64,000 nt of DNA from Candidatus Acidiferrum sp. (GTDB lineage Bacteria; Acidobacteriota; Terriglobia; Acidiferrales; UBA7541). The stretch spans positions 529 through 64,528 of the forward strand of contig DASXMB010000054.1 in assembly GCA_036495905.1 (NCBI GenBank). The letters are read 5' to 3'. The notes under the pieces are model-generated. The model did not search any database. It saw only the letters and a program-made list of their open reading frames with translations, and was not told the DNA's origin. Both the position numbers and the translations under genes were made by a program. Positions 12,521-37,205 of the stretch are shown here, one piece after another; the stretch's first letter is position 1, and every line of letters begins with the position of its first letter.

Positions 12521-15454
12521 ATGCCATCGCCGTCACAACTGAGTCCGGATAACATACTGCGCTTTCTGCAAGTTAGGCCGGAACCCGCTTCCGCCGTGGA
12601 CATTGCCGAAGCGCTGCACCTCGGCAAATCGGAGCGCCGCCCGCTTTTTCGCATGCTTGCCAAGTTGAAAAAACGCGGCGCCTTGCAGGAACTGCCCGGC
12701 GGGCGCTACCGCCTCGGCGGCCGCAAAGAAAAAAGCAAAGCCGGAGCCGCGCTCCGCGAGGAAAAACAATATATCGGCCAAACCGACCGCGAAAATCGCA
12801 ATCGTGGCGATCGGCCGAACGAAAATCGCAGCCGGGAAGGAGATCGAAATCGCCAAGACGACGGCGGCCCCGGCCAGCGCAGCAGCAACGATCGCGGCGG
12901 CAACGACCGTAGCGGAGAGCAGCGCGGGCAGAAACGCGGCGAACAAAATCGAGGCGAGCAAAATCGGGGCGAACAAAATCGGGGTGACCGGCGGGAACCT
13001 TCGCGCGAAGCGTCGCAACGGGAATTTTCGCAGCGAGAAAGCGGACGCGGTGGATCGCCGCAAGGAAGCAAAAATTTTCGCGACGCGGGCCAGCGCAATC
13101 AAGGCCGCGAAATGCCGGCCCGAGACCGGCGCACCGGCAATTTGCGCCACGAAAAAGAGAGCGGCGGAAATTCCGGCGCGGTAGCGCGAGGCCGCGACGA
13201 AATTACCGGCCGCCTGGTTTTGCACCACGACGGCTACGGCTTCGTGGTTCCCGATACGCCGATGCCACAAATCGAGCGTGACATCTTTATTCCGCGCGAT
13301 TCCGTGGAAGACGCCATGCACGGCGATCACGTGCTGGTAAAAATTGGCCGCGTCAGCGGACTGGTTGGAGAAAAACGCGCCGAAGGCCGCATCGTTCGCG
13401 TTCTGAATCGCGCGCATCCCACCGTGGTCGGATTATTTCGCTACGGGCCGCGCGCCAACATCGTCCTTCCGTACGACGCGCGCATGCAATACGAAGTGCA
13501 CATTCCGCCTGGCGAAGAGTTGACGCCGGAATTGTGGAAAAAACTTGGGCTCGATGCGCGCAGCATTCAGGGCCAGCGCATTCCGCAAATGGAAGAGCTG
13601 AATGGCGCGGTGGTCGACGTCGAATTAATTCGCTATCCGCGCGGCGGCGCTTCGCCCACCGGACGCGTGATCGAAATTCTCGGGCGCCCCGGCGATCTCG
13701 GCGTGGATATCGAGATCATGATCCGCAAGCATCACTTGCCGCACGTTTTTTCGCCGGAAGTGCTGCAGGAAGCGGAACGCCGCGCCCGTCCAGTGACGGA
13801 AGCGGAGCGCGCCAAGCGCGAAGATTTTCGCAACTTGCCGATTGTTACCATCGACGGCGAAACCGCGCGCGATTTTGACGACGCCGTATACGTCGAACGG
13901 CGAGCGGATGGCGGCTGGAATTTGCAGGTGCACATCGCGGACGTATCGCACTATGTGCGCACCGGAACGGAATTGGACGGCGAGGCGCGCTTGCGCGGCA
14001 CTTCGGTTTATTTTCCAGATCGCGCCGTACCCATGCTTCCGGAGAGTTTGTCGAATGGAATGTGCTCGCTGAAACCCCGCGAAGAGCGATTGGTGATGAG
14101 CGCGCTGATGGAATTCGATTCCGCCGGAAATATGCGCGGCTCGCGAATGACCTCCGGCGTAATTCGTTCCGCGGAGCGCATGACTTACACCGATGTGAAC
14201 AAAGTTCTGGAAGGCGATTCCGAAGCGAGCGCGAAATACGCGGAACTGGCGCCGCGTTTTCGAGACATGAAAGAGCTGGCCCTGCTGCTGAATGCGCGGC
14301 GCGGCGAACACGGTTCGATTGATTTCGATTTGCCGGAACGCGTGATCGAATTTGACGAACAGCAGCGCATGATCAATATCGGCCGCAGCGAAAGAAATAT
14401 CGCGCACCGGCTGATTGAGGAATTCATGCTGGCGGCGAATCGCGCGGTGGCCGGCTATTTGTTGCAGCGCGGATTCGCTTCGCTGCATCGCGTGCATGAA
14501 AAACCGGACGCCAAGAAAGTTTTGGATTTTGAAGAAATGGCGCGCGCGTTTGGCTATTCCCTGGGCGTGGAGAATTTGCATCAACGAGAAATTGCGGTGC
14601 GGCACGGGCGCGTGCCTTCGCCGGCAAAAGCGGGTCGCCCGGATTCGCGCGGCTATGGACGCGAACGCGAAATGAAAGTAGCGCTGCCGGGAACCACCGA
14701 ACTGCGCATTACGCCGCAGCATTATCAAAGATTGGTGCGCAAGCTCGCCGGCAAACCGGAAGAGCGCATCGTTTCTTACTTGATGCTGCGCTCGCTGAAA
14801 CAAGCGCGCTATGCCGCCGATCCGCTGGGACATTTTGCTTTGGGTTTTGAAGAGTACACGCATTTCACTTCGCCGATCCGGCGCTATCCGGATCTGGTGG
14901 TTCACCGCATTTTGAAATGGGCGCTGGAACATCCGCAAGAATCGGCGCCCAAGGGCAGCGTGGCGGAGCCAGGCGGCGAAGCTACCGTGTATTCGTACAA
15001 ACAGCTGGAAGAAATCGCCACGGAAACTTCCGAAGCGGAACGCCGCGCCGCCGGCGCCGAGCGCGAATTGATGGACTGGAAGACGGCGCAATTCATGGAA
15101 GAACATTTGGGCGAAGAGTACGACGGGCTGATTATTTCCGTGCAGAAGTGGGGTTGCTTCGTCGAACTATTCGAGATTTTTGTTGAAGGGCTTTTGCCGA
15201 TTCAGGCGCTGGAAGACGCGGCGAATGCGCGCTGCATCTATCGCGAAAAAGAGCACGTGATTGTGGCGCTACAAAATTCGGATGGCCGCCGCGGAAGTTC
15301 GGGAGGTCGGCGCGGGCGCGGCGCAAAGGTGCAAGAGCTTACCTGGCAGCTCGGCGATCGCGTGAGGGTGCGCGCGGAGCGCATCGATCCGATGCGACGG
15401 CGCGTGGAATTCGCGCTAGTGGATGGAATGGGCGACGTGCGCGAAGTAAGCTGA
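12521..15454 (+). CDS. rnr: Ribonuclease R, with a long low-complexity insertion after the N-terminal winged-helix domain
   Basis: 977-aa ORF with an N-terminal HTH-like segment, cold-shock-like domains, an RNB catalytic core (IDGETARDFDDAVYVE...HIADVSHYV...YFPDRAVPMLPE) and a C-terminal S1 domain (GLIISVQKWGCFVELF). Confidence 0.9.
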   Translation: MPSPSQLSPDNILRFLQVRPEPASAVDIAEALHLGKSERRPLFRMLAKLKKRGALQELPGGRYRLGGRKEKSKAGAALREEKQYIGQTDRENRNRGDRPNENRSREGDRNRQDDGGPGQRSSNDRGGNDRSGEQRGQKRGEQNRGEQNRGEQNRGDRREPSREASQREFSQRESGRGGSPQGSKNFRDAGQRNQGREMPARDRRTGNLRHEKESGGNSGAVARGRDEITGRLVLHHDGYGFVVPDTPMPQIERDIFIPRDSVEDAMHGDHVLVKIGRVSGLVGEKRAEGRIVRVLNRAHPTVVGLFRYGPRANIVLPYDARMQYEVHIPPGEELTPELWKKLGLDARSIQGQRIPQMEELNGAVVDVELIRYPRGGASPTGRVIEILGRPGDLGVDIEIMIRKHHLPHVFSPEVLQEAERRARPVTEAERAKREDFRNLPIVTIDGETARDFDDAVYVERRADGGWNLQVHIADVSHYVRTGTELDGEARLRGTSVYFPDRAVPMLPESLSNGMCSLKPREERLVMSALMEFDSAGNMRGSRMTSGVIRSAERMTYTDVNKVLEGDSEASAKYAELAPRFRDMKELALLLNARRGEHGSIDFDLPERVIEFDEQQRMINIGRSERNIAHRLIEEFMLAANRAVAGYLLQRGFASLHRVHEKPDAKKVLDFEEMARAFGYSLGVENLHQREIAVRHGRVPSPAKAGRPDSRGYGREREMKVALPGTTELRITPQHYQRLVRKLAGKPEERIVSYLMLRSLKQARYAADPLGHFALGFEEYTHFTSPIRRYPDLVVHRILKWALEHPQESAPKGSVAEPGGEATVYSYKQLEEIATETSEAERRAAGAERELMDWKTAQFMEEHLGEEYDGLIISVQKWGCFVELFEIFVEGLLPIQALEDAANARCIYREKEHVIVALQNSDGRRGSSGGRRGRGAKVQELTWQLGDRVRVRAERIDPMRRRVEFALVDGMGDVREVS
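12938..12985 (+). repeat. 15-nt tandem repeat, 3 units, inside rnr
   Basis: GAACAAAATCGAGGC / GAGCAAAATCGGGGC / GAACAAAATCGGGGT, encoding (EQNRG)x3. Confidence 0.7.
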
Positions 15455-15601: not shown

Positions 15602-16156
15602 TTAACGGCTGGCGCTGAGCGAGAGACGCAAAGAACTAAGCATGCGGCGGCCAGGACGGGTTGCGATGGCCGCGAATCGCGCCAGCGGCAACCACGCATT
15701 ACTGTAAAGCGAAAGGAGCGCAATCAGTTTTGCGAAAGCCATTCGCCGCGGCGACTGGAAATCGATGCGCCGGCCTCCGCGATACAGCCGGACCATGCGG
15801 CCAAGCAAATGGCGCGAGGCGATAAATCCATCGGCATCGGCGCAGGCATCGCCTTTAACAAATAATTTCGCGGACTCTTGCGAGCCATGCGTAGCGACAA
15901 TGCGATGCACGATGGTGCGATTTTCAGCGCGAAACAAAACCACGTCGCCGCGTTCCACTGAATTCAGCTCGGCGCGTTTCACCACCACGATGTCGCCAGG
16001 GCGCAGCCACGGCAACATGCTGTTGCCGCGCACGCGCAGCGAAATGCGTCCGCGCTCCGCAAGCGCCGCGGCAATGCGAGTGGCGTCGCCAGAGCGGCGC
16101 TCTCCATCAAAGCGGTGCGGTTTAGGCAAATGCGCGTAAGTAGTGTCAGAAGCCAT
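15602..16156 (-). CDS. S24/S26-family (signal-peptidase-I-like) serine peptidase, candidate leader peptidase of the RiPP-like island
   Basis: 184-aa ORF with LRVRGNSMLPWLRPGDIVVVKR...VHRIV...VKGD, the Ser/Lys dyad context of S24/S26 peptidases, and a hydrophobic C-terminal segment. Confidence 0.7.
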   Translation of the reverse strand: MASDTTYAHLPKPHRFDGERRSGDATRIAAALAERGRISLRVRGNSMLPWLRPGDIVVVKRAELNSVERGDVVLFRAENRTIVHRIVATHGSQESAKLFVKGDACADADGFIASRHLLGRMVRLYRGGRRIDFQSPRRMAFAKLIALLSLYSNAWLPLARFAAIATRPGRRMLSSLRLSLSASR

Positions 16157-16717
16157 TAGCAGTGTTCGGGGACAGTGTTCAGGTCACCGAAAGTTTTGAA
16201 AAATTTGTCCTGTCGCAGACGGTCGCAGAGCTGTCAATTTTGCGCGGCGATCACGTAGCAGCACACGGGAAACGTTCCAACTTGGTGCTTGTCGGCCAAG
16301 AATGCGCCACAACGGAACGTCAAAATGTGCTGGAACTAGGTTGATGTTTCAGAACGGAATGGTCAATGAACCTAATGTTTCATTTTGCTCAAAGGCACAC
16401 GGGGGAAAGACTGTACGTTGTGGCGAGGGGTTAGGAGTAGTTTTGCGGCGGGAAGTGGCCAAGTTGAGATCCTTCGGCCCGCAAAACCAGCGGCCCTCCC
16501 TACGCTTCGCCCAGGGCGAGCAGGATGACATCTTGGGCGTTGGGCGGCTGGACGCTGCGGCGAAAGCCCAGGAGTGCCGAAAGGCTGGAATCGCGGCGGA
16601 CCACTGAAAAAGTTGGGTATTGCGGCGAAAAGTCGCGAAGCTGCGGAGAGCGGAAATTGCGCGGAAGCCCTAGGTTGCGACGCAAGCCTGGAACTTGCGG
16701 GGCCCGCCAGATCGGGG

Positions 16718-16888
16718 CTAGGAACGGCGGACGGCTTGGCTGCAGGCGGCGCCTTGGCCAGGGAGTTTTCCACAGGCCAGGGCTAGAGTCTCGTAAATAG
16801 GCTCAGAAATGACGCTGGGCTTGGCGTAGGGCTTCTTATTGCCCTCCATGCCCTGCTTTTCGGTCGATTTCGGTCGATCTTCAGCCAT
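16718..16888 (-). CDS. Unannotated 56-aa candidate RiPP precursor peptide
   Basis: My own translation of the minus strand: MAEDRPKSTEKQGMEGNKKPYAKPSVISEPIYETLALACGKLPGQGAACSQAVRRS*. An AGGAA Shine-Dalgarno sits 6 nt before the ATG at 16888. The ORF starts 39 nt downstream of the rSAM stop on the same strand. It is below the 60-aa cutoff of the ORF track. Confidence 0.55.
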   Translation of the reverse strand: MAEDRPKSTEKQGMEGNKKPYAKPSVISEPIYETLALACGKLPGQGAACSQAVRRS

Positions 16889-16927
16889 AACCTGTTCCTA
16901 ACTCTCTAGCGCCGGGACTAGCGGCCT

Positions 16928-18142
16928 TTAGTGCAACCTCAATGATGACACAGAATTGGGTGCTGTGTCTGGACGTGTTGCGTTTATGGCACTAGCGGCC
17001 CGCTGGGCGTGCAGGGCGCTAATAGGACTGGCGATGCCAGCCATACGGGCTTTTTGCTCGGCCAGGTCGCAAGCTCGGTCGTAAGCACCGGTAATGTCGC
17101 CGCCTTCCATCAGGGCGAGGCCGGGGCAGCGTTCACAGTAGGCGCGAATGTCGCACGTGGAACATACCGGCAACTGGCTTTCGCGGATGGCGCGAAGTTT
17201 TTCCAGCTGTGGGGAGCCGTACCAAATGTCCTTAAAACGGTTGTTGCGCAGGTTGCCAGCGGCCTGGGGAAGCTGGACGCAGGGGAACACGTCGCCATAA
17301 GGGGAAATATAGCAACTGTTGTGGCCGGCGCTGCACATCATGTCTTCGTAGGCGCCGCTTTCGATGCCGCTGGAAACGGAGCTGCCGAGGGTGGGGAGAG
17401 GCGCTGCGGCGGAACCGAGATTTTCGGATTGCGCAGGCGGCTGGGGATGGCAGGAGCTCAGCGAAGAATCCTGCATGATTGGCAAAAGCTGTTCGGCGGA
17501 AGCGCGGTAGTCCAGAGTGCTGCTGCTGCCGTCCATCATCGGAGTGATGGTTAAGTCCAAAATGTAGGGAATGCCAAGTTTTTCCGCGAGGGCCATTACG
17601 CCGCGATAGGCGAGCAAATTTTGTTTCATCAGTGGGCAGGCGAGTTTCACCTGCAAACCTTGTTCGATGAGGAGAGGAATTGCGTCGAGGGTGCGTTGCA
17701 GCGAGCCGGGAACTTTGGTGATGGCATCGTGGATGGCGGGATCGTCGCTGTAGACGCTGATCTGAACGCGGCGCACGCCGAGTTCGCGAAGGCGAACGGC
17801 GCGTTCGCGAGTGACCATAAGAGCGTTGGTTTTCAGGCTGATGTCAAAATGCAGGCGGCGAGCGCCGGCAAGAATTTCAAAAAGATCGGGCCGTAGAAAA
17901 ATTTCTCCGCCACTGAAAGTAAGGAAAAGCGTGCCGGCGGCGGCGAGTTGATCGAGGACGGCGAGACATTCGGCGGTGGTGAATTCGCCGTGATCGTCGT
18001 GATCGAGATAGCAATGAACACAGCGTTCGTTGCAGCGATAGGTGAGATCGAAATGCACGCTGACCGGACGGCGTTTGTTGGTGGTTCGCGAAATGAAGCG
18101 ATCCATCAGCGGCGTGGGATTAATTTGGGCGGAAGCGCTCAC
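16928..18142 (-). CDS. Radical SAM enzyme with a C-terminal SPASM domain
   Basis: CX3CX2C motif CNERCVHC near the N-terminus. The C-terminal auxiliary-cluster motifs CSAGHNSCYISPYGDVFPC and CSTCDIRAYCERC fit the SPASM pattern. A GTG at 18142 overlaps the PqqD stop (GTGA). The alternative start is the ATG at 18106. The track ORF extends to 18250. Confidence 0.85.
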   Translation of the reverse strand: MSASAQINPTPLMDRFISRTTNKRRPVSVHFDLTYRCNERCVHCYLDHDDHGEFTTAECLAVLDQLAAAGTLFLTFSGGEIFLRPDLFEILAGARRLHFDISLKTNALMVTRERAVRLRELGVRRVQISVYSDDPAIHDAITKVPGSLQRTLDAIPLLIEQGLQVKLACPLMKQNLLAYRGVMALAEKLGIPYILDLTITPMMDGSSSTLDYRASAEQLLPIMQDSSLSSCHPQPPAQSENLGSAAAPLPTLGSSVSSGIESGAYEDMMCSAGHNSCYISPYGDVFPCVQLPQAAGNLRNNRFKDIWYGSPQLEKLRAIRESQLPVCSTCDIRAYCERCPGLALMEGGDITGAYDRACDLAEQKARMAGIASPISALHAQRAASAINATRPDTAPNSVSSLRLH

Positions 18143-18435
18143 CGAGAAATCCCTTCCGCGGATGCGGGAATGACGAGTTTTTTGGAAGACAATTCCTGCA
18201 AGAGATTTTGCGTGTCGGCAAGAGCGATGGGCTCGGCAACTTCGTAACAAGCGGCCAGCAAGGCGGCGAGATCGGAAGCGGAACGACGGCCGTCGATATT
18301 TTCCCAGATGAAAGTGCCGGTGTCGTTGAGTTCGTGCATGACGCTTTCGGCGGGAGAAATGATCACGGTTTCGCCATCGATTTCTCGCCAGGCGAGAGCG
18401 GGGTTTTTCTGCCAGAGCGCGGAAATTTCACTCAT
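18139..18435 (-). CDS. PqqD-family protein (RiPP recognition element / peptide chaperone)
   Basis: 98-aa ORF ...WREIDGETVIISPAESVMHELNDTGTFIWENIDGRRSASDLAALLAACYEV..., the typical PqqD/RRE pattern. Its ATG overlaps the upstream stop (ATGA at 18432-18435). Confidence 0.8.
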   Translation of the reverse strand: MSEISALWQKNPALAWREIDGETVIISPAESVMHELNDTGTFIWENIDGRRSASDLAALLAACYEVAEPIALADTQNLLQELSSKKLVIPASAEGISR

Positions 18436-19259
18436 GCGGGAAGCGCCTCCCAGAAAGTAGCGTCTCTGCGGAAATCCAGGGTATAGCCGGAAATTTGCTG
18501 GACGGCTTGGCCGAGAATCTCCAACAGGCGCTGGTTAGCGGCGAGGTCGCTGGAAAAAAACAAAATGTTGGGCAAGAGAATGCGGAGAAATTCCATGGGA
18601 TGCAGCGAAGCAACTTGATTCGTGGCCGATTGCAGCAGGCGAAAAATTCCAGCGACAGGAGCGCTGACGTTGGATCCAGCAGCGCGGAATTCTCCCCAAA
18701 AGGGAGTGCCGTAGGCGCGCCAGACGCCGTCTTCAAAACGCAGCAGAGAAATTTCGTCGGTGAGGACGGAGCCGGCTGGGGCGAGAGACGCTACGGTGCT
18801 TTTTCCGGCACCGGAACGGCCAGTAAAAACGAAAGCGCGACCATTGCGAACCACGGTGGCGGCATGCAACAAGAAACCGGTGTGCGGCAGCAACCGCCAA
18901 CTAAGGAACATGCGGAGCAGGCCGTCCAATGCGTATTCATTGCCGACGCCGGCGAAAGAGGATTCGGAGGCAAAGATTTTGAGCACGGCGTTTCCGAAGG
19001 TGCAAGAAAATTCGGGGTCGCTATTGGAAGCGGCGACAGAGTCGTTGCAAGAAATGGTGAAGGGATGAGCGTGGCTGGCGGTGAAGGCGCTATAACGCGC
19101 GGACGCGGCGGCGCGGAGCGGCTCTTCCGGGATGCGCAGACGGAGCGGCAGGCAACCGATGGAGACATCAAACTGGTGCTGAGGCGTGCGCCCCAGCGTG
19201 GCTTGCGGTGCGGTCAAAAAACTCCTTGGCCGATTCAACCGGCAAAAAAATGGCAACAC
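18432..19259 (-). CDS. HPr-kinase-like P-loop protein (HprK-related, RiPP-associated kinase type)
   Basis: LLHAATVVRNGRAFVFTGRSGAGKSTVASL, i.e. Walker A G-x-SG-x-GKS in the HprK C-terminal-domain context. The start is uncertain: either the GTG at 19259 or the TTG at 19217, which is preceded by AGGAG. Confidence 0.75.
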   Translation of the reverse strand: MLPFFCRLNRPRSFLTAPQATLGRTPQHQFDVSIGCLPLRLRIPEEPLRAAASARYSAFTASHAHPFTISCNDSVAASNSDPEFSCTFGNAVLKIFASESSFAGVGNEYALDGLLRMFLSWRLLPHTGFLLHAATVVRNGRAFVFTGRSGAGKSTVASLAPAGSVLTDEISLLRFEDGVWRAYGTPFWGEFRAAGSNVSAPVAGIFRLLQSATNQVASLHPMEFLRILLPNILFFSSDLAANQRLLEILGQAVQQISGYTLDFRRDATFWEALPA

Positions 19260-19580
19260 GCGGCGGGGAGGCTGCGACGCGCTGAGCCTAAAGGTATGTA
19301 TCTACTTTCCGGCGACGAGAGGGTGCGCGTCAAGGCCAGATGATACGTGATGGCGCAAAAGAGGAATACCTGTCCTCCAGTACGGTACGTAGCGTGGTGG
19401 ATACGGTCGGCGATTCGCGATGCGGCGGGTGCGGTCCAAATCGGCTGTTTTGCAAAGGGTTGCGATGGGGCATTCTTCAGAGGCCAGGATGGTTCTGTTA
19501 TTCTTGAAGCAGAGTGAAAATGTTTTGTGCTCGATAGGGAAAGGAATGCAATCGTGAAAACTTCAGCGAGTGCCAGTGCC

Positions 19581-20672
19581 ATGGGAAAGCGCGTATTCAA
19601 TTTTAATGCGGGTCCGGGAGCGCTGCCGCTGCCGGTGCTGGAACGCATTCGCGAAGAGTTGCTGGACTGGCAGGGCAGCGGAATGTCGGTGATGGAGATG
19701 AGCCACCGGTCGCCGGAATTCGAGGGAATTTTGGCACGCGCGGAAGCCGGGCTGCGGAAGCATTTGAGCATTCCGGACGAGTACGCGGTGTTGTTCTTGC
19801 AGGGCGGCGGAAGCATGCAATTTACGATGGCGCCGATGAATTTGTGTTTGCCGGGAAAGCCGGTGGATGTGTTGCATACAGGAACATGGACGGCGAAGGC
19901 GCTGGGCGAATTGAAGAAGGGGATTTTGCATAACGTGGCGGCGTCGACCGAGGCAGAAAAGTTTCGCCGCGTGCCACGCAAGGAAGAGATCAAACTTTCG
20001 GCGGATGCGTCGTATGTGCACATGTGCACGAACAATACGATTGAAGGGACGCAGTGGCACACGATGCCGGATAGCGGAGCGGCGCCACTGGTGGCGGACA
20101 TGTCTTCGGATATTGCATCGCGCCCGGTGGACGTGAAGAAATTCGGACTGATTTTTGCAGGCGCGCAGAAAAACCTGGGGCCGAGCGGAGCTACCGTGGT
20201 GATTTTGCGGAAGGAACTGGCGGAGCGGGCGGACAAAAATTTGCCGACGCTGCTCCAATATCGAACCCATGTGAAGGAGCATTCGCTGTATCACACGCCG
20301 CCGACGTTTGCGATTTACATTATTGGGTTGGTGATGGAGTGGATCGATGCGGAAGGCGGGATTGCGGGAATAGAAAAAACGAATGTGGCGAAGGCGAAGT
20401 TGCTTTACGACTCGATTGATGGAAGTGGATTTTATTCGTGTCCGGTGGAGAAGGAATCGCGGTCACGAATGAACGTGGTTTTTCGCGTGGCAGGCGGGGA
20501 TGAGGCGAAAGAAAAGAAATTTGGGGAGCAGGCTGCGGCAGCGGGATTGGTTGGCACGCCGGGACACCGATCGGTGGGCGGGATGAGAGTATCGTTGTAT
20601 AACGCGGTGACGCCGGGGGCGGTGGAGAGTTTGGTGGGATTTATGAAGGAGTTTCAGCGGGTTGAGGGGTAG
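19581..20672 (+). CDS. serC: Phosphoserine aminotransferase SerC
   Basis: MGKRVFNFNAGPGALPLPVLERIREELLDWQGSGMSVMEMSHRSPEF... and ...GAQKNLGPSG.... The ATG at 19581 is preferred. A GTG at 19554 with a better RBS is also possible. Confidence 0.9.
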   Translation: MGKRVFNFNAGPGALPLPVLERIREELLDWQGSGMSVMEMSHRSPEFEGILARAEAGLRKHLSIPDEYAVLFLQGGGSMQFTMAPMNLCLPGKPVDVLHTGTWTAKALGELKKGILHNVAASTEAEKFRRVPRKEEIKLSADASYVHMCTNNTIEGTQWHTMPDSGAAPLVADMSSDIASRPVDVKKFGLIFAGAQKNLGPSGATVVILRKELAERADKNLPTLLQYRTHVKEHSLYHTPPTFAIYIIGLVMEWIDAEGGIAGIEKTNVAKAKLLYDSIDGSGFYSCPVEKESRSRMNVVFRVAGGDEAKEKKFGEQAAAAGLVGTPGHRSVGGMRVSLYNAVTPGAVESLVGFMKEFQRVEG

Positions 20673-31641: not shown

Positions 31642-32222
31642 GACATCTGCGAACATTCGGCGTTATCTGCATCAGTTTATTTTTTGGGCTGCTTATGACC
31701 GTTGCAAGCACTCGCGCCGCCGAAGGCGGCGATTCCGCGAATTCTGGCGTCACGGAACTTTTCAAGTGGATCAATTTCGCAATCCTGGCGGGCTTGGTGC
31801 TGTGGGTTTTCGGGAAAGTGCTGCCGCCGACGTTCCGCGGCCGGGCACAAACGATCAGTTCAGCGATCAGCAAATCGACAGCGGCGAAGGTTGAAGCCGA
31901 CCGTCAACTTCGCGAAGCGGAAGACAGACTGGCGAAACTGGAGCAGGAAGTTGCACAGCTTCGAGAAGAAGCGAAACGGGACGGCGTCGCTGAAGCCGAC
32001 CGTATTCGCAAAGCGTCGCAGAGCGATGCGGAACGAATCGCTATCGCGGCACAAGTGGAAATTGAGGCGGCAGAGCGTTCGGCTCGGCTGGAACTGAAAG
32101 CGATTGCGGCGAAACTGGCTGTGGACGGCGCGGAAAATCTGCTGGCGCAGCAACTAACTCCGAAGGCACAAGAATCGTTGGTGGCGGCTTTTGTGAAGAG
32201 TCTTGATGGGAGACCGAATTGA
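31638..32222 (+). CDS. atpF: F0F1 ATP synthase subunit b
   Basis: TM helix plus a coiled-coil stalk sequence (…REAEDRLAKLEQEVAQLREEAKRDG…), positioned directly before the delta subunit. Confidence 0.8.
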   Translation: MRHLRTFGVICISLFFGLLMTVASTRAAEGGDSANSGVTELFKWINFAILAGLVLWVFGKVLPPTFRGRAQTISSAISKSTAAKVEADRQLREAEDRLAKLEQEVAQLREEAKRDGVAEADRIRKASQSDAERIAIAAQVEIEAAERSARLELKAIAAKLAVDGAENLLAQQLTPKAQESLVAAFVKSLDGRPN

Positions 32223-32755
32223 GCTCGGCTAGTCTGCAATACGCGAATGCCCTCGCGGACGTGGCGCTGGATCAAGGCGCGGCCGAGCCCGTTCTTAAAC
32301 AGCTTGGGGCATTCGGGGCCGCATACGAAGAGTCTGCAGAGCTGCGGAATTTTTTGTCGAGCCCTGCGGTCGGCCGCGAGGCCAAGCACGGGGTAATCGA
32401 AAAACTGATCGCGCGGCTAGGCGCCAGCAAAATTTTACGCAATTTTCTGTTTGTGATTTCCGACCGGCATCGCATGCACATTTTGCCGGAAGTGATCACG
32501 GCCTTCCAAGAAGTGATTCGGCAGCGGCAAGGTGTTACTGAGGCGGAGATTTCGTCGCCCACGGAACTAAGTGCGACACAAAAAACGGAATTCGGCAAAG
32601 TGCTGGCGCGGCTTACCGGAAAGCGCGTGGAAGCAAAATATTCGCTTGATCCCACATTGTTGGGCGGAGCGGTGGTGCGCATCGGCGACACGATTTACGA
32701 CGGGTCCTTGCGCAACCAGTTGGATGGATTGCGTGCGCGGCTGGCGGCAGAATAA
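32219..32755 (+). CDS. atpH: F0F1 ATP synthase subunit delta (OSCP)
   Basis: 178 aa, TTG start overlapping the atpF stop (TTGA). SLQYANALADVALDQG...LLGGAVVRIGDTIYDGSLRNQL is typical of delta. Confidence 0.85.
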   Translation: MSSASLQYANALADVALDQGAAEPVLKQLGAFGAAYEESAELRNFLSSPAVGREAKHGVIEKLIARLGASKILRNFLFVISDRHRMHILPEVITAFQEVIRQRQGVTEAEISSPTELSATQKTEFGKVLARLTGKRVEAKYSLDPTLLGGAVVRIGDTIYDGSLRNQLDGLRARLAAE

Positions 32756-32844
32756 ATTTTTGTGAAGCGGTTGCGGTAAGAGATGTTGTGTTTCAGCGAG
32801 TTCGGGAATTAGGTTAGTTGCGCTTTTTGGCGCACGGAGCAGGA

Positions 32845-34386
32845 ATGGCGAATATCAAGGCAGACGAAATCAGTAAGATTCTGCGCGAGCAGATCGAAAA
32901 CTACGAACAGGCCGTGGCGGTGGACGAGGTTGGCGCAATCGTCAGTGTGGGCGACGGAATCGCGCGTATCCACGGACTCGAAAAAGTGATGTCCGGCGAA
33001 ATGCTGGCGTTCCCGCACAACATTTTCGGCATTGCGCTGAACCTGGAAGAAGACGAAGTCGGCGCGGTGCTGCTGGCGGAATCGGCGGAACTGAAGGAAG
33101 GCGATACCGTCAAGCGCACCAACACGATTATGTCGGTGCCGGTTGGCGAAGGCTTGATCGGGCGCGTGGTCAATCCGATTGGCGAACCGCTGGATGACAA
33201 AGGGCCGATCGTCGCAAAGCAACGCAATCCTCTGGAGCGCATCGCTCCCGGCGTGTTGGATCGTCAACCAGTACGCGAACCGCTACAGACCGGTATCAAG
33301 GCGATCGATTCCATGATTCCGATTGGCCGCGGCCAGCGCGAGTTAATCATTGGCGACCGCCAAACCGGTAAGACCGCCGTCATTCTGGACACCATCATCA
33401 ATCAAAAGGGGAGCGGCGTAATTTGTATTTACTGCGCGATCGGCCAGAAGCGCTCCACGATTGCGCAAGTTGTGAAAGTGCTCACCGACGCGGGCGCGAT
33501 GGATTACACCATCATCGTTGCATCGTCTGCGTCCGAGCCGGCTTCGGTGCAGTACATCGCGCCGTACGCGGCATGCGCGATCGGCGAATACTTCCGCGAC
33601 ACCAAGCGCCACGCGGTGACTTTTTACGACGACCTTTCCAAGCACGCGCAGGCCTATCGCGAAATTTCTTTGCTGTTGCGCCGCCCACCGGGGCGCGAAG
33701 CGTTCCCCGGCGACGTGTTTTATCTGCACTCGCGCCTGCTGGAACGCGCCGCGAAATTGAACGACAAGTTGGGGGCGGGTTCGCTGACTTCTCTGCCGGT
33801 TATCGAAACACAGGCCGGTGACGTTTCTGCGTATATTCCGACGAACGTAATTTCCATTACCGACGGCCAGATTTATCTAGAAGCGGACTTGTTCAACGCA
33901 GGTATTCGCCCTGCCATCAACGTGGGTATTTCGGTAAGTCGTGTCGGCGGCAACGCGCAAATCAAAGCAATGCGGCAAGTCGCCGGTTCTCTGCGGCTGG
34001 ACATGGCGCAATATCGAGATTTGGCGGCATTTGCGCAGTTCGGTTCCGACCAGTTGGACAAGGCGACGCAGGCGCAGTTGGGCCGCGGTCAACGGCTGAC
34101 GGAAATCTTGAAGCAGGATCAGTACGTTCCGTTGTCGGTCGAAAAACAAGTGCTCAGCATTTATGTGGCGACCAGCGGCGCGCTGGACAATATTCCTGTC
34201 GAAGACGTGCGCCGATTTGAACGCGAATTTTTGCAGTACGTCGAAAGCAATGTGTCGAACATTTTGAAGAGCATCGCGGAAAAGAAAGCTCTGGATGACG
34301 GCATCAAAGCGGAGATCAAGAAAGCGCTCGACGCCTTCAAAGAGCGGTTTGCTCCTGCTCCGGCGGCAGCAGCGGCGGCGAAATAA
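32845..34386 (+). CDS. atpA: F0F1 ATP synthase subunit alpha
   Basis: [21 protein letters not shown]..., P-loop GDRQTGKTA, and ...[31 protein letters not shown]. Confidence 0.95.
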
Positions 34387-34406
34387 GGCGAACGCAGCGA
34401 TAGATC

Positions 34407-35297
34407 ATGCCCACACTTCTTGATTTCCGGCGTCGCATCCGCTCGGTGAAAAACACCCAGCAGATCACCCGCGCAATGAAGTTCGTCGCCGCGGCCCGGT
34501 TGCGGCGCGCGCAAGAAGCGGCGTTGGCGGCGCGCCCCTATGCGCAGGAACTCGCCAGACTTTTGCGCTCCATCATGGCGCGTATTCAAGAGCCGGAGCA
34601 TCCCTTGCTGGAAAAGCGCCCGGAAGAAAACATATTGGCCATTGTGCTGACGGGCGAGCGTGGCTTGGCCGGCGCCTTCAACAGCAACATTTTGCGCAAA
34701 GCGAATGAATTCTTTCGCGGCCACAAAGGTAAGAAAATCACCACGATCCCGGTCGGCAAAAAAGGCCGCGATTCGCTGAAAAAGGCCGGTTTTGAGTTCG
34801 CCGGCGAATACATTAACGTGCTGGCGCGAGTAGATTTCAAGACCGCGCGGGAAATTGCGGCGTTGGTTACGGAACTGTACGCCAAGCGCAAAGTCGATTC
34901 GGTCTACATCGTGTTCAGCGAATTCAAAACGGTGATGACGCCAAACCTCGTGGTGGAAAAACTGTTGCCGGTAGAAGCGATTCGCGAAGAAAAAGACGTG
35001 GACGAAAAAAAGAAGGATGCGGCGCACCCGGAAACGCAAGTTGACTACATTTACGAGCAACCACCGGAGAAATTACTGGGCAAGCTGCTGCCGCGCTACA
35101 TCGAAACCCAATTGCTGCGCGCCATGCTGGAATCATCGGCGGCCGAACACGCCGCTCGCATGACGGCAATGGAATCCGCGACCAACAACGCCGGCGACGT
35201 AATCGATGCGCTGACGTTGCATATGAACAAGGTTCGGCAAGCGGCCATTACCAAGGAAATTATTGAGATTGTTAGCGGCGCGACTTACGGAACGTAG
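34407..35297 (+). CDS. atpG: F0F1 ATP synthase subunit gamma
   Basis: MPTLLDFRRRIRSVKNTQQITRAMKFVAAARLRRAQE...NKVRQAAITKEIIEIVSGA. Confidence 0.9.
   Translation: MPTLLDFRRRIRSVKNTQQITRAMKFVAAARLRRAQEAALAARPYAQELARLLRSIMARIQEPEHPLLEKRPEENILAIVLTGERGLAGAFNSNILRKANEFFRGHKGKKITTIPVGKKGRDSLKKAGFEFAGEYINVLARVDFKTAREIAALVTELYAKRKVDSVYIVFSEFKTVMTPNLVVEKLLPVEAIREEKDVDEKKKDAAHPETQVDYIYEQPPEKLLGKLLPRYIETQLLRAMLESSAAEHAARMTAMESATNNAGDVIDALTLHMNKVRQAAITKEIIEIVSGATYGT

Positions 35298-35329: not shown

Positions 35330-37205
<1,876 letters not shown>

Follow-up and report, generated by a model that had tools for sequence, protein, structure and literature searches.

A Probable Peptide Maturation Operon of Acidobacteriota That Joins an HprK-Fold Kinase-Like Protein and a PqqD Protein to a Radical SAM/SPASM Enzyme

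Introduction

The five genes considered here, clustered in a 64,000-nucleotide stretch of DNA (the window, meaning the whole stretch that was analyzed) from a metagenome-assembled genome (MAG) of 'Candidatus Acidoferrum sp.', find close described counterparts among the gene clusters for peptides that are made on ribosomes and modified after translation (RiPPs). The phosphorylated lasso peptides are one such case: lasso precursors are phosphorylated at their C-terminal Ser by the kinases PadeK, ThcoK, SyanK, and PsmK while the leader is still attached (PMC9266682; PMC6993621), the PqqD-like B1 protein has a nanomolar affinity for the leader (PMC5067487), and B1/PqqD strongly stimulates the kinase (PMC10368454). 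The leaders of lasso precursors share a conserved YxxPxL motif (PMC10368454), whose distance to the cleavage site is constant, and the lasso-precursor kinase BsfK requires a motif composed of H148, G163, G166, G168, K169, S170, D186, and D187 (PMC10368454). In the case of pseudomycoidin, an uncharacterized nucleotidyltransferase, PsmN, acts on the phospho-Ser (PMC6993621).

In soil, the Acidobacteriota rank with the most abundant bacteria; they are hard to culture, and their chemistry is little known, while relatives of the kinase-like gene described below make up thousands of protein clusters in public data. We consider it probable that the five genes form a vertically inherited, RiPP-type peptide maturation operon of Acidobacteriota, acting on its own 56-residue precursor by the pathway outlined below, and that its product is more likely physiological than antibiotic. 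Gene content, domain and fold assignments, conservation, co-occurrence, and the standing of the peptide ORF as a translated gene are the established results of the analysis, and it is from these that we infer every chemical step, the cleavage site, and the role.

Gene Content of the Locus

Five co-directional open reading frames (ORFs), all on the minus strand, are found within positions 15602-19259, flanked by the genes for RNase R (rnr, 12521-15454, plus strand) and SerC (19527-20672, plus strand). The operon measures 3.7 kb, is self-contained, and encodes a kinase-like protein, a PqqD protein, a radical S-adenosylmethionine (SAM)/SPASM enzyme, a peptide of 56 amino acids (aa), and a peptidase, with the following features:

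18432..19217, minus strand: ScmC-family P-loop kinase-like protein of the HprK/PEPCK fold, 261 aa from TTG 19217
18139..18435, minus strand: PqqD-family RiPP recognition element (RRE), 98 aa, Pfam PqqD, its ATG overlapping the stop of the kinase-like gene
16928..18142, minus strand: radical SAM/SPASM enzyme, 404 aa, its GTG start at 18142 overlapping the stop of the PqqD gene
16718..16888, minus strand: candidate precursor peptide gene, 56 aa plus stop, MAEDRPKSTEKQGMEGNKKPYAKPSVISEPIYETLALACGKLPGQGAACSQAVRRS, recognized from homologues and codon variation
16817..16828, minus strand: YxKP motif of the presumed leader, Y21-A-K-P24, 18 residues before Cys39
16766..16807, minus strand: block S28-EPIYETLALACG-K41 with the A36-L-A38/C39 junction, conserved in subfamily 1 (see below)
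16721..16774, minus strand: putative 18-residue core, C39-GKLPGQGAA-C49-SQAVRR-S56, with fixed Cys spacing and a C-terminal Ser
16157..16717, no strand: 561-bp spacer that separates the peptide gene from the peptidase gene, without a conserved ORF
15602..16156, minus strand: soluble Sec11/SipW-type (S26B-like) serine peptidase, 184 aa, candidate leader peptidase
19218..19526, no strand: divergent intergenic region shared with serC, presumed from the gene layout to hold the operon promoter

A first-pass annotation, made from the sequence without database searches, had placed the five genes at these positions, and all are present, as are the two start/stop overlaps that it reported, ATGA at 18432-18435 (kinase-like/PqqD) and GTGA at 18139-18142 (PqqD/radical SAM). 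Its PqqD, radical SAM/SPASM, and S24/S26 calls were borne out by hidden Markov model (HMM) searches, and its view of the first protein as a P-loop protein of the HprK type agrees with a precomputed Pfam assignment (ScmC), a weak match to HprK_rel_A, and the fold obtained with AlphaFold and Foldseek. In the NCBI record, the genes are called hypothetical protein, PqqD family protein, radical SAM protein, and signal peptidase I, and the peptide is left unannotated.

The same annotation held that the locus lacks a lasso cyclase, a B2 protease, and an exporter, and the analysis supports this. The PP-loop motif SGGxDS, a rough proxy for a lasso cyclase, was not found anywhere in the 64-kb window (this being a motif test and not an HMM search), and no gene beyond the five is present between serC and rnr, the Pfam assignments of all five being other than B2 protease.

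Conservation Across Acidobacteriota

Clustering at 90% leaves 1,208 relatives of the kinase-like protein (the best 120 of these 1,208 are at least 59% identical), and a scan of the GTDB species representatives recovered 133 species, of which the 80 that were retrieved are almost all MAGs of Acidobacteriota, with no isolate among them. The loci compared here comprise 84 of one subfamily (subfamily 1, to which the window belongs) and 82 of a second (subfamily 2), or 166 related loci in total. In subfamily 1, the ScmC-like, PqqD, and radical SAM genes are adjacent in 84/84 loci, the PqqD homologue directly following ScmC in every one of these, with the peptide in 74/84 loci and the peptidase likewise in 74/84. 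About 29 related loci carry the same block between serC and rnr. The block is ancestral, syntenic, and vertically conserved and not a recent insertion, because the trio and the synteny are conserved across related loci. The words 'island' and 'wedged', as used in the first-pass annotation, do not suit a block that is conserved in this manner in many Acidobacteriota MAGs and metagenome contigs.

Three main layouts are recognized. The first, represented by the window, is the compact five-gene form between serC and rnr. The second is the compact form with two genes added between the peptide and the peptidase, one for a secreted DNRLRE/CBM96 plus beta-propeller protein and one for a 169-aa protein. 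The third further adds, upstream, genes for a PAS/GAF hybrid histidine kinase, a 99-aa protein, and, beside the kinase-like gene, an NTP_transf_5 nucleotidyltransferase (E 1e-54). One example of the extended form is locus L045 (769-5664 and 8376-11195), and about 45 other loci, such as those in the series L031-L083, are of this type. No homologues of the NTP_transf_5, hybrid histidine kinase, propeller, lipoprotein-like, or 99-aa genes are present in the window. The peptide and the peptidase accompany the trio even across 2.7 kb of intervening genes. The spacer that separates them in the window, 561 bp (16157-16717), compares with approximately 290 bp in close relatives, or with the two extra genes in the sister loci. 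The notion of the sister-locus beta-propeller as a client of a quinoprotein-type cofactor was considered and found unsupported, the only matches being to DNRLRE/CBM96 and BamB-like repeats.

The second, deep-branching subfamily was reached through a relative of the kinase-like protein (P0147) that is only 35% identical to it and heads a family of 2,606 proteins in soil bacteria of the Terriglobales type. Here the gene order is different, namely peptide, peptidase, kinase-like, PqqD, radical SAM (82 loci), with the peptide present in 59/82 and the peptidase in 71/82, and many of the absences fall on truncated contigs. Gene callers had missed the homologous peptide and the S24/S26-like peptidase upstream of the kinase-like gene in this subfamily (for example at L085:7280-7987 and L086:7251-8004); in L085, a 76-aa ORF on the opposite strand was called in place of the missed genes. 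As public gene calls miss both the precursor and the peptidase, automated neighborhood analyses would overlook both.

Could the genes simply be unrelated neighbors, an ordinary signal peptidase I and a small ORF that is there by chance or serves some other purpose? The NCBI labels, with 'signal peptidase I' for the peptidase and no annotation for the peptide, may be taken to suggest this, as may the 561-bp spacer before the peptidase. However, this explanation is contradicted by the fact that peptide and peptidase accompany the trio in both subfamilies, under two gene orders; the peptidase does not possess the membrane anchor of true signal peptidases, and the peptide is under purifying selection at the codon level, all of which renders the explanation hardly credible.

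Two further observations concern individual loci. In L001 (10414-10879), the junction of the peptidase gene with rnr has taken up a gene for a ParE toxin together with a small partner gene, and therefore this junction tolerates insertions. The Asn-synthetase-type PP-loop motif has two matches in the 166 related loci, neither of them conserved; one such motif, IGVFLSGGLDSASVASLA, is located in L038 at roughly 800-900 on the minus strand, approximately 5 kb upstream of the kinase-like gene and on the opposite strand to it, and may belong to asnB or to a lasso cyclase.

The Candidate Precursor Peptide

The 56-aa ORF is a real gene and a conserved candidate precursor, as the first-pass annotation had suspected, and its product is one of 130 distinct homologues. 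The family comprises 226 protein clusters, all named 'hypothetical' and none with a Pfam domain. Across 71 distinct nucleotide versions from subfamily 1, little or no variation is seen in five elements: Y-x-K-P; S-E-P-I-Y-E-T-L-A-L-A-C-G-K; P-G-Q; the second Cys; and P-R-R-S-stop. Synonymous codons vary at the invariant residues examined in this subfamily, the mark of purifying selection at the codon level, and within the block S28-K41, 9 of the 14 positions are strictly invariant and the rest nearly so. A 133-aa ORF on the minus strand (16372-16773), overlapping the 3' end of the peptide gene, looks spurious.

The peptide statistics were taken over 130 distinct homologous peptides from both subfamilies. 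The C-terminal residue is Ser in 130/130, and likewise Ala is found at position -3 relative to the first Cys (Cys1) in 130/130, the residue at -1 being A, S, T, G, or V. The distance from the Tyr of YxKP to Cys1 is exactly 18 residues in 128/128 of the peptides bearing the motif, that from Cys1 to the second Cys (Cys2) is 10 residues in 123/130, and 124/130 have 7 residues from Cys2 to the C-terminus. The putative core, from Cys1 to the end, measures 18 residues in 122/130, and about 95% of the peptides conform to Cys1-x9-Cys2-x6-Ser. An example from subfamily 2 reads ...RKPYVKPAFRFEKVFETMALACGKVTPAVSNCRFNRKNS. The precursor has no signal-peptide h-region. The YxKP motif is the presumed contact for the PqqD/RRE protein, by analogy with lasso leaders, and the A36-L-A38/C39 junction is a candidate cleavage site by the -3/-1 rule of signal peptidases.

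This degree of conservation bears on another explanation, that of a conventional antimicrobial RiPP, a sactipeptide or ranthipeptide of the bacteriocin type, whose transporter would be encoded at another place in the genome. The standard layout of sactipeptide and ranthipeptide clusters is indeed present, with its radical SAM/SPASM enzyme, its RRE, and a precursor that contains Cys, and a RiPP cluster is what genome-mining tools would report at this locus. The cores of antimicrobial RiPPs are usually variable, however, while the core in question is nearly invariant over many lineages of MAGs and metagenomes; the compact form has no conserved neighbor with an export, immunity, or regulatory function; the synteny with serC and rnr is stable, with no sign of the behavior of a mobile island; and phosphorylated lasso peptides made with related kinases showed no antibacterial activity (PMC6993621). 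An antimicrobial of this kind seems to us distinctly improbable.

The P-Loop Kinase-Like Protein

The kinase-like gene most likely starts at TTG 19217 (261 aa), as indicated by the NCBI call and the homologues, the open frame reaching to GTG 19259 (275 aa). Pfam PF27840 'ScmC' is the precomputed assignment for the window protein and for all of its listed relatives, and the ScmC superfamily counts approximately 9,400 representatives. Among the NCBIfam models, HprK_rel_A (3.7e-9) and ScmC (4.1e-9) are both matched far below the cut-off, and HprK_rel_B is weak too; the scores against TIGR04352 and TIGR04355 (HprK-related kinase A/B) are 36.1 and 22.5 bits, versus a 200-bit cut-off, and the best E value against the HprK-related models among the 111 relatives in a diverse alignment (A2) is 4.6e-12. 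A sequence-profile search against the PDB sequences returned only generic P-loop matches, to ABC ATPases.

The structural evidence is more specific. AlphaFold (AF2), when given 16 close homologues, produced an unusable model, with a predicted local distance difference test score (pLDDT) of 46, and the alignment of 111 diverse relatives was used instead, resulting in a model of pLDDT 93.9. In a Foldseek search, this model matched, with probability 1.0, ATP-dependent PEPCK (E 2.5e-8) and HprK/P (E 2e-5 to 2e-4). PEPCK and HPr kinase/phosphorylase belong to the same fold superfamily, and both the HprK/P-PEPCK fold and the catalytic motif are found in the window protein. The motif comprises (in the numbering of the 261-aa form) H118, G133-x2-G136-x-G138-K139-S140, and D154-E155, and in an alignment of close homologues (A1), H118, G133, S135, G136, G138, K139, S140, D154, and E155 are all invariant. 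In the A2 alignment of 111 sequences, H118, S135, and G138 are invariant, G133, K139, and D154 are conserved in at least 90%, and G136, S140, and E155 in less than 90%. Compared with BsfK by the published motif residues, the protein agrees in its H-to-G spacing (15) and in its P-loop.

It is here that one may ask whether the P-loop protein is a peptide Ser kinase at all. It could be an ATP-dependent scaffold, or it could activate another residue or group (for example a carboxylate, or in leaving-group chemistry), or it could act on a non-peptide substrate, with the rest of the pathway standing. The scores far below the cut-offs of all the named HprK-related models are in line with this, as is the ranking of PEPCK as the best structural match, with HprK/P lower, the ending of the motif in D-E and not D-D, and the lack, in the literature found, of a characterized homologue from a radical SAM-associated cluster of the ScmC type. 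On the other hand, the His, the Lys-Ser of the P-loop, and the acidic pair are intact at the spacing of the lasso kinases, the gene is translationally coupled to that for PqqD, the C-terminal Ser is universal among the 130 peptides, and in sister loci an NTP_transf_5 gene adjoins the kinase-like gene, as with PsmK/PsmN (PMC6993621). We regard a role other than peptide Ser kinase as unlikely, if still a credible minority view, and we refer to the protein as a putative kinase in what follows.

The PqqD and Radical SAM/SPASM Proteins

The PqqD protein matches Pfam PqqD with an E value of 5.3e-18. Within NCBIfam, its best match, to the Bacillota model of the lasso PqqD chaperone, stays below the cut-off (6.6e-8), and it scores 29.7 bits against the NCBIfam PqqD model, versus a cut-off of 46.

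The radical SAM enzyme matches Pfam Radical_SAM (E 1.5e-21) and SPASM (E 1.3e-11), and it carries the CX3CX2C motif (CNERCVHC) and a full set of SPASM cysteines. Its scores reach the cut-off of no named NCBIfam radical SAM family, the best match being AhbD (140 versus 500 bits), and the same is true for the maturases of sactipeptides, with 101 versus 625 bits for StsB and 76 versus 850 for AlbA. The nearest solved structures are PqqE (1e-14) and SkfB (7e-11).

These affinities lead to the question of a peptide-derived cofactor or small molecule, made in the style of pyrroloquinoline quinone (PQQ) or mycofactocin, with a few residues modified and excised and most of the peptide discarded. Such a product would fit the pairing of PqqD with a SPASM radical SAM enzyme whose closest solved structure is PqqE and whose better NCBIfam matches include MftC and PqqE. 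It would also fit the extreme conservation of the precursor while the enzymes diverge, which is the pattern of cofactor precursors, the inheritance of the block by vertical descent amid housekeeping genes, where neither an exporter nor an immunity gene is found, and the presence of an E-x-x-Y/F-E motif (SEPIYE / ERVFE) in the conserved block. Nevertheless, the PqqE and MftC models are missed by far (98 versus 381 and 106 versus 265 bits), and neither tailoring genes resembling PqqB, PqqC, or MftD/E/F nor other genes of the PQQ and mycofactocin pathways are present at the locus. Approximately 35 conserved residues, with a fixed Cys spacing and a fixed C-terminus, fit an intact peptide better than an excised dipeptide, and the beta-propeller of the sister loci resembles BamB and DNRLRE-domain proteins and not quinoprotein dehydrogenases. 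An excised cofactor of this kind appears quite unlikely to us.

The Peptidase

The peptidase matches Pfam Peptidase_S24 (E 1e-8) and Peptidase_S26 (E 3e-6), and with 52.3 bits it lies just over the cut-off (51.85) of the NCBIfam model for signal peptidase I of the archaeal type (TIGR02228, sigpep_I_arch). Its best solved relatives are SEC11A and SEC11C, and the Ser, His, and Asp are conserved in the SEC11A alignment. Among 73 aligned peptidase homologues, Ser46 (in GNSMLP), His84 (in IVHRIV), Asp103, and Asp109 are invariant. The first-pass annotation had described a Ser-Lys peptidase, but a Ser-Lys mechanism of the LexA/bacterial SPase I type was rejected on account of the SEC11A alignment and the invariant His84, and the enzyme is to be seen as one of the Ser-His-Asp type, given this alignment and the invariance of the four residues. 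No transmembrane segment or N-terminal hydrophobic stretch is predicted, the maximum Kyte-Doolittle hydropathy over 19 residues being 1.29, and to judge by its sequence, such a protein, having no membrane anchor, is consistent with leader removal in the cytoplasm.

Proposed Maturation Pathway and Role

The pathway that we propose would proceed in four steps. First, PqqD would bind the leader via YxKP and present the peptide to the enzymes. Second, the P-loop enzyme of the HprK/PEPCK fold would phosphorylate the C-terminal Ser56 using ATP, as most of the characterized lasso-precursor kinases do. Third, the radical SAM/SPASM enzyme would cross-link the C-terminal part, most likely via Cys39 and Cys49, for example through thioethers. 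Fourth, the soluble Sec11/SipW-like peptidase would remove the leader, most likely after Ala36-Leu37-Ala38, leaving an 18-residue product. By analogy with the characterized pathways, the most likely product would be an 18-residue peptide that is leader-cleaved, radical SAM-modified, and phosphorylated at its C-terminus. In the sister loci, the NTP_transf_5 gene beside the kinase-like gene recalls the PsmK/PsmN pair, a likeness by description.

A number of observations weigh against this scheme. In the neighborhood check that the first-pass annotation had proposed, for a small peptide always accompanying the enzymes, the peptide is indeed found in most loci of both subfamilies, as counted above, but 8 loci (L048, L058, L059, L061, L068, L071, L073, and L081) maintain the NTP_transf_5, kinase-like, PqqD, radical SAM, and peptidase genes with no peptide gene within approximately 6 kb, as judged by an HMM search. 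In these, nothing separates the radical SAM gene from the peptidase gene that comes after it, and the propeller and 169-aa lipoprotein-like genes are missing as well. Further, the kinase-like, PqqD, and radical SAM proteins miss the cut-offs of every functionally defined NCBIfam family, and the nearest named relatives of the radical SAM enzyme are AhbD/NirJ, MftC, and PqqE (of tetrapyrrole, mycofactocin, and PQQ biosynthesis), not thioether synthases. The kinase-like protein has Glu as the second acidic residue and a loop two residues shorter than that of BsfK, and BsfK itself phosphorylates an internal Ser and not the C-terminal one (PMC10368454), for which reason Ser56 is a best guess as the phosphorylation site. 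As to the cleavage site, Cys-Gly (UmuD-like) is an alternative, and the invariant block upstream of Cys39 could belong to the product and not to the leader. Finally, the operon encodes no exporter.

As to the role, a physiological product, either a signal or a cofactor-like peptide, is more likely than a variable antibiotic, since the core is nearly frozen while the enzymes diverge to 35% identity, inheritance is vertical, and no conserved exporter or immunity gene is found nearby. Going further, the operon might make an unrecognized, phylum-wide molecule of Acidobacteriota, this being the phosphorylated, radical SAM-cross-linked 18-mer or a cofactor derived from it, which would act as a signal or in partnership with the propeller protein of the sister loci, serving a conserved physiological function, and the system might define a new RiPP class characterized by an HprK-fold kinase, a SPASM enzyme, and a cytoplasmic Sec11-like peptidase; we offer this broader proposal tentatively and hold it to be doubtful on the whole.

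The precursor is exceptionally well defined, resulting in clear residue-level predictions for co-expression and mass spectrometry. Should the proposed pathway be true, a function would be assigned to the uncharacterized ScmC/HprK-related family outside the lasso peptides, an enzyme resembling signal peptidases would serve as a cytoplasmic RiPP leader peptidase, and the combination of phosphorylation with radical SAM chemistry would be new to the RiPP repertoire.

Other Features of the Window

The noncoding parts of the locus gave few signals. No match to the sigma-70 consensus was found by a promoter scan of the intergenic region 19218..19526, the promoter there being placed by gene layout. 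The 561-bp spacer has no Rfam match, a scan for promoters and terminators gave no explanation for it, and no remnant of the propeller or lipoprotein-like genes of the sister loci was found in it by tblastn.

The flanking RNase R (12521-15454, plus strand) has an N-terminal low-complexity extension of approximately 200 residues (window positions 12700-13200), rich in Arg, Gly, Glu, Gln, and Asn, which includes tandem 'RGEQN' repeats (GEQNRGEQNRGEQNRG). The protein is 977 aa long in the window, versus 853 aa in L001 and 810 aa in L002. Elsewhere, a 132-aa ORF (35330-35728, plus strand) adjoins putative ATP synthase genes (32219-35297, so assigned by position and N-terminal sequence). By eye, we take its product to resemble the four-helix-bundle proteins that are sometimes encoded in rRNA intervening sequences.

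Comparison with Known Systems

The first-pass annotation had left undecided whether this architecture was already catalogued, and the answer is divided. The system carries no name, and no publication on this architecture was found in the literature searched, an incomplete library whose silence is not proof of absence; the trio, on the other hand, is already catalogued, as SynChlorMet and as Pfam ScmC, and is to that extent less unprecedented than had been implied. The SynChlorMet (SCM) cassette (ScmC/D/E/F; NCBIfam TIGR04248-04251) likewise combines an HprK-related protein of the ScmC family with a PqqD homologue and radical SAM/SPASM enzymes, without lasso genes. The window proteins miss the respective cut-offs, with 36.2 versus 125 bits for ScmC, 25.9 versus 100 for ScmD, 97.7 versus 400 for ScmE, and 69.2 versus 400 for ScmF. 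While SynChlorMet has two radical SAM genes (ScmE and ScmF), the window system has one, and to this it adds a precursor that can be identified and an S26-like peptidase of its own. The SCM cassette is mentioned by no paper in the literature searched, and its precursor is not known to have been identified.

The lasso clusters of the paeninodin, pseudomycoidin, and Bsf types share with the window system the pairing of an HprK-like kinase with a PqqD RRE. The phosphorylated lasso clusters are also matched in the motif H...GxxGxGKS...D(D/E), in a leader motif of the YxxP type, and in the C-terminal Ser of the precursor, so that the link to paeninodin-type clusters drawn in the first-pass annotation was apt. 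Unlike these clusters, the window operon has no Asn-synthetase-like cyclase, B2 protease, or ABC exporter, and instead has a radical SAM/SPASM enzyme and a Sec11/SipW-like peptidase. The lineage of the window is also without a nucleotidyltransferase, unlike the pseudomycoidin cluster (PsmN), while sister loci carry NTP_transf_5.

With the signal peptidases of the endoplasmic reticulum and of archaea (Sec11, SipW; MEROPS S26B), the window peptidase shares the Ser-His-Asp constellation and the SM-P/HR/KGD-x5-D motifs, and the candidate cleavage site in the window peptide likewise fits the small-residue rule for positions -3 and -1. In contrast to the Sec11/SipW enzymes, the window peptidase has no membrane anchor, is encoded in a peptide maturation operon, and has a presumed substrate without an h-region.

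The sactipeptide, ranthipeptide, PQQ, mycofactocin, and GeoRSP systems likewise employ a PqqD/RRE protein and a SPASM maturase on a short precursor, and Cys residues are present in the putative core of the window peptide. A precursor clustered with an RRE and a maturase across genomes, which is the generic pattern of a RiPP operon, is found in 74/84 and 59/82 loci and in two gene orders. In contrast to these radical SAM/SPASM RiPP systems, whose RRE is discrete or fused, the radical SAM enzyme of the window falls short of every family cut-off, a putative kinase and an S26-type peptidase are added, and the core is nearly invariant.

In conclusion, from its sequence the system is best described as an RRE-dependent radical SAM RiPP pathway with a putative tailoring kinase of the lasso type, the trio being catalogued in outline and this system carrying no name of its own.

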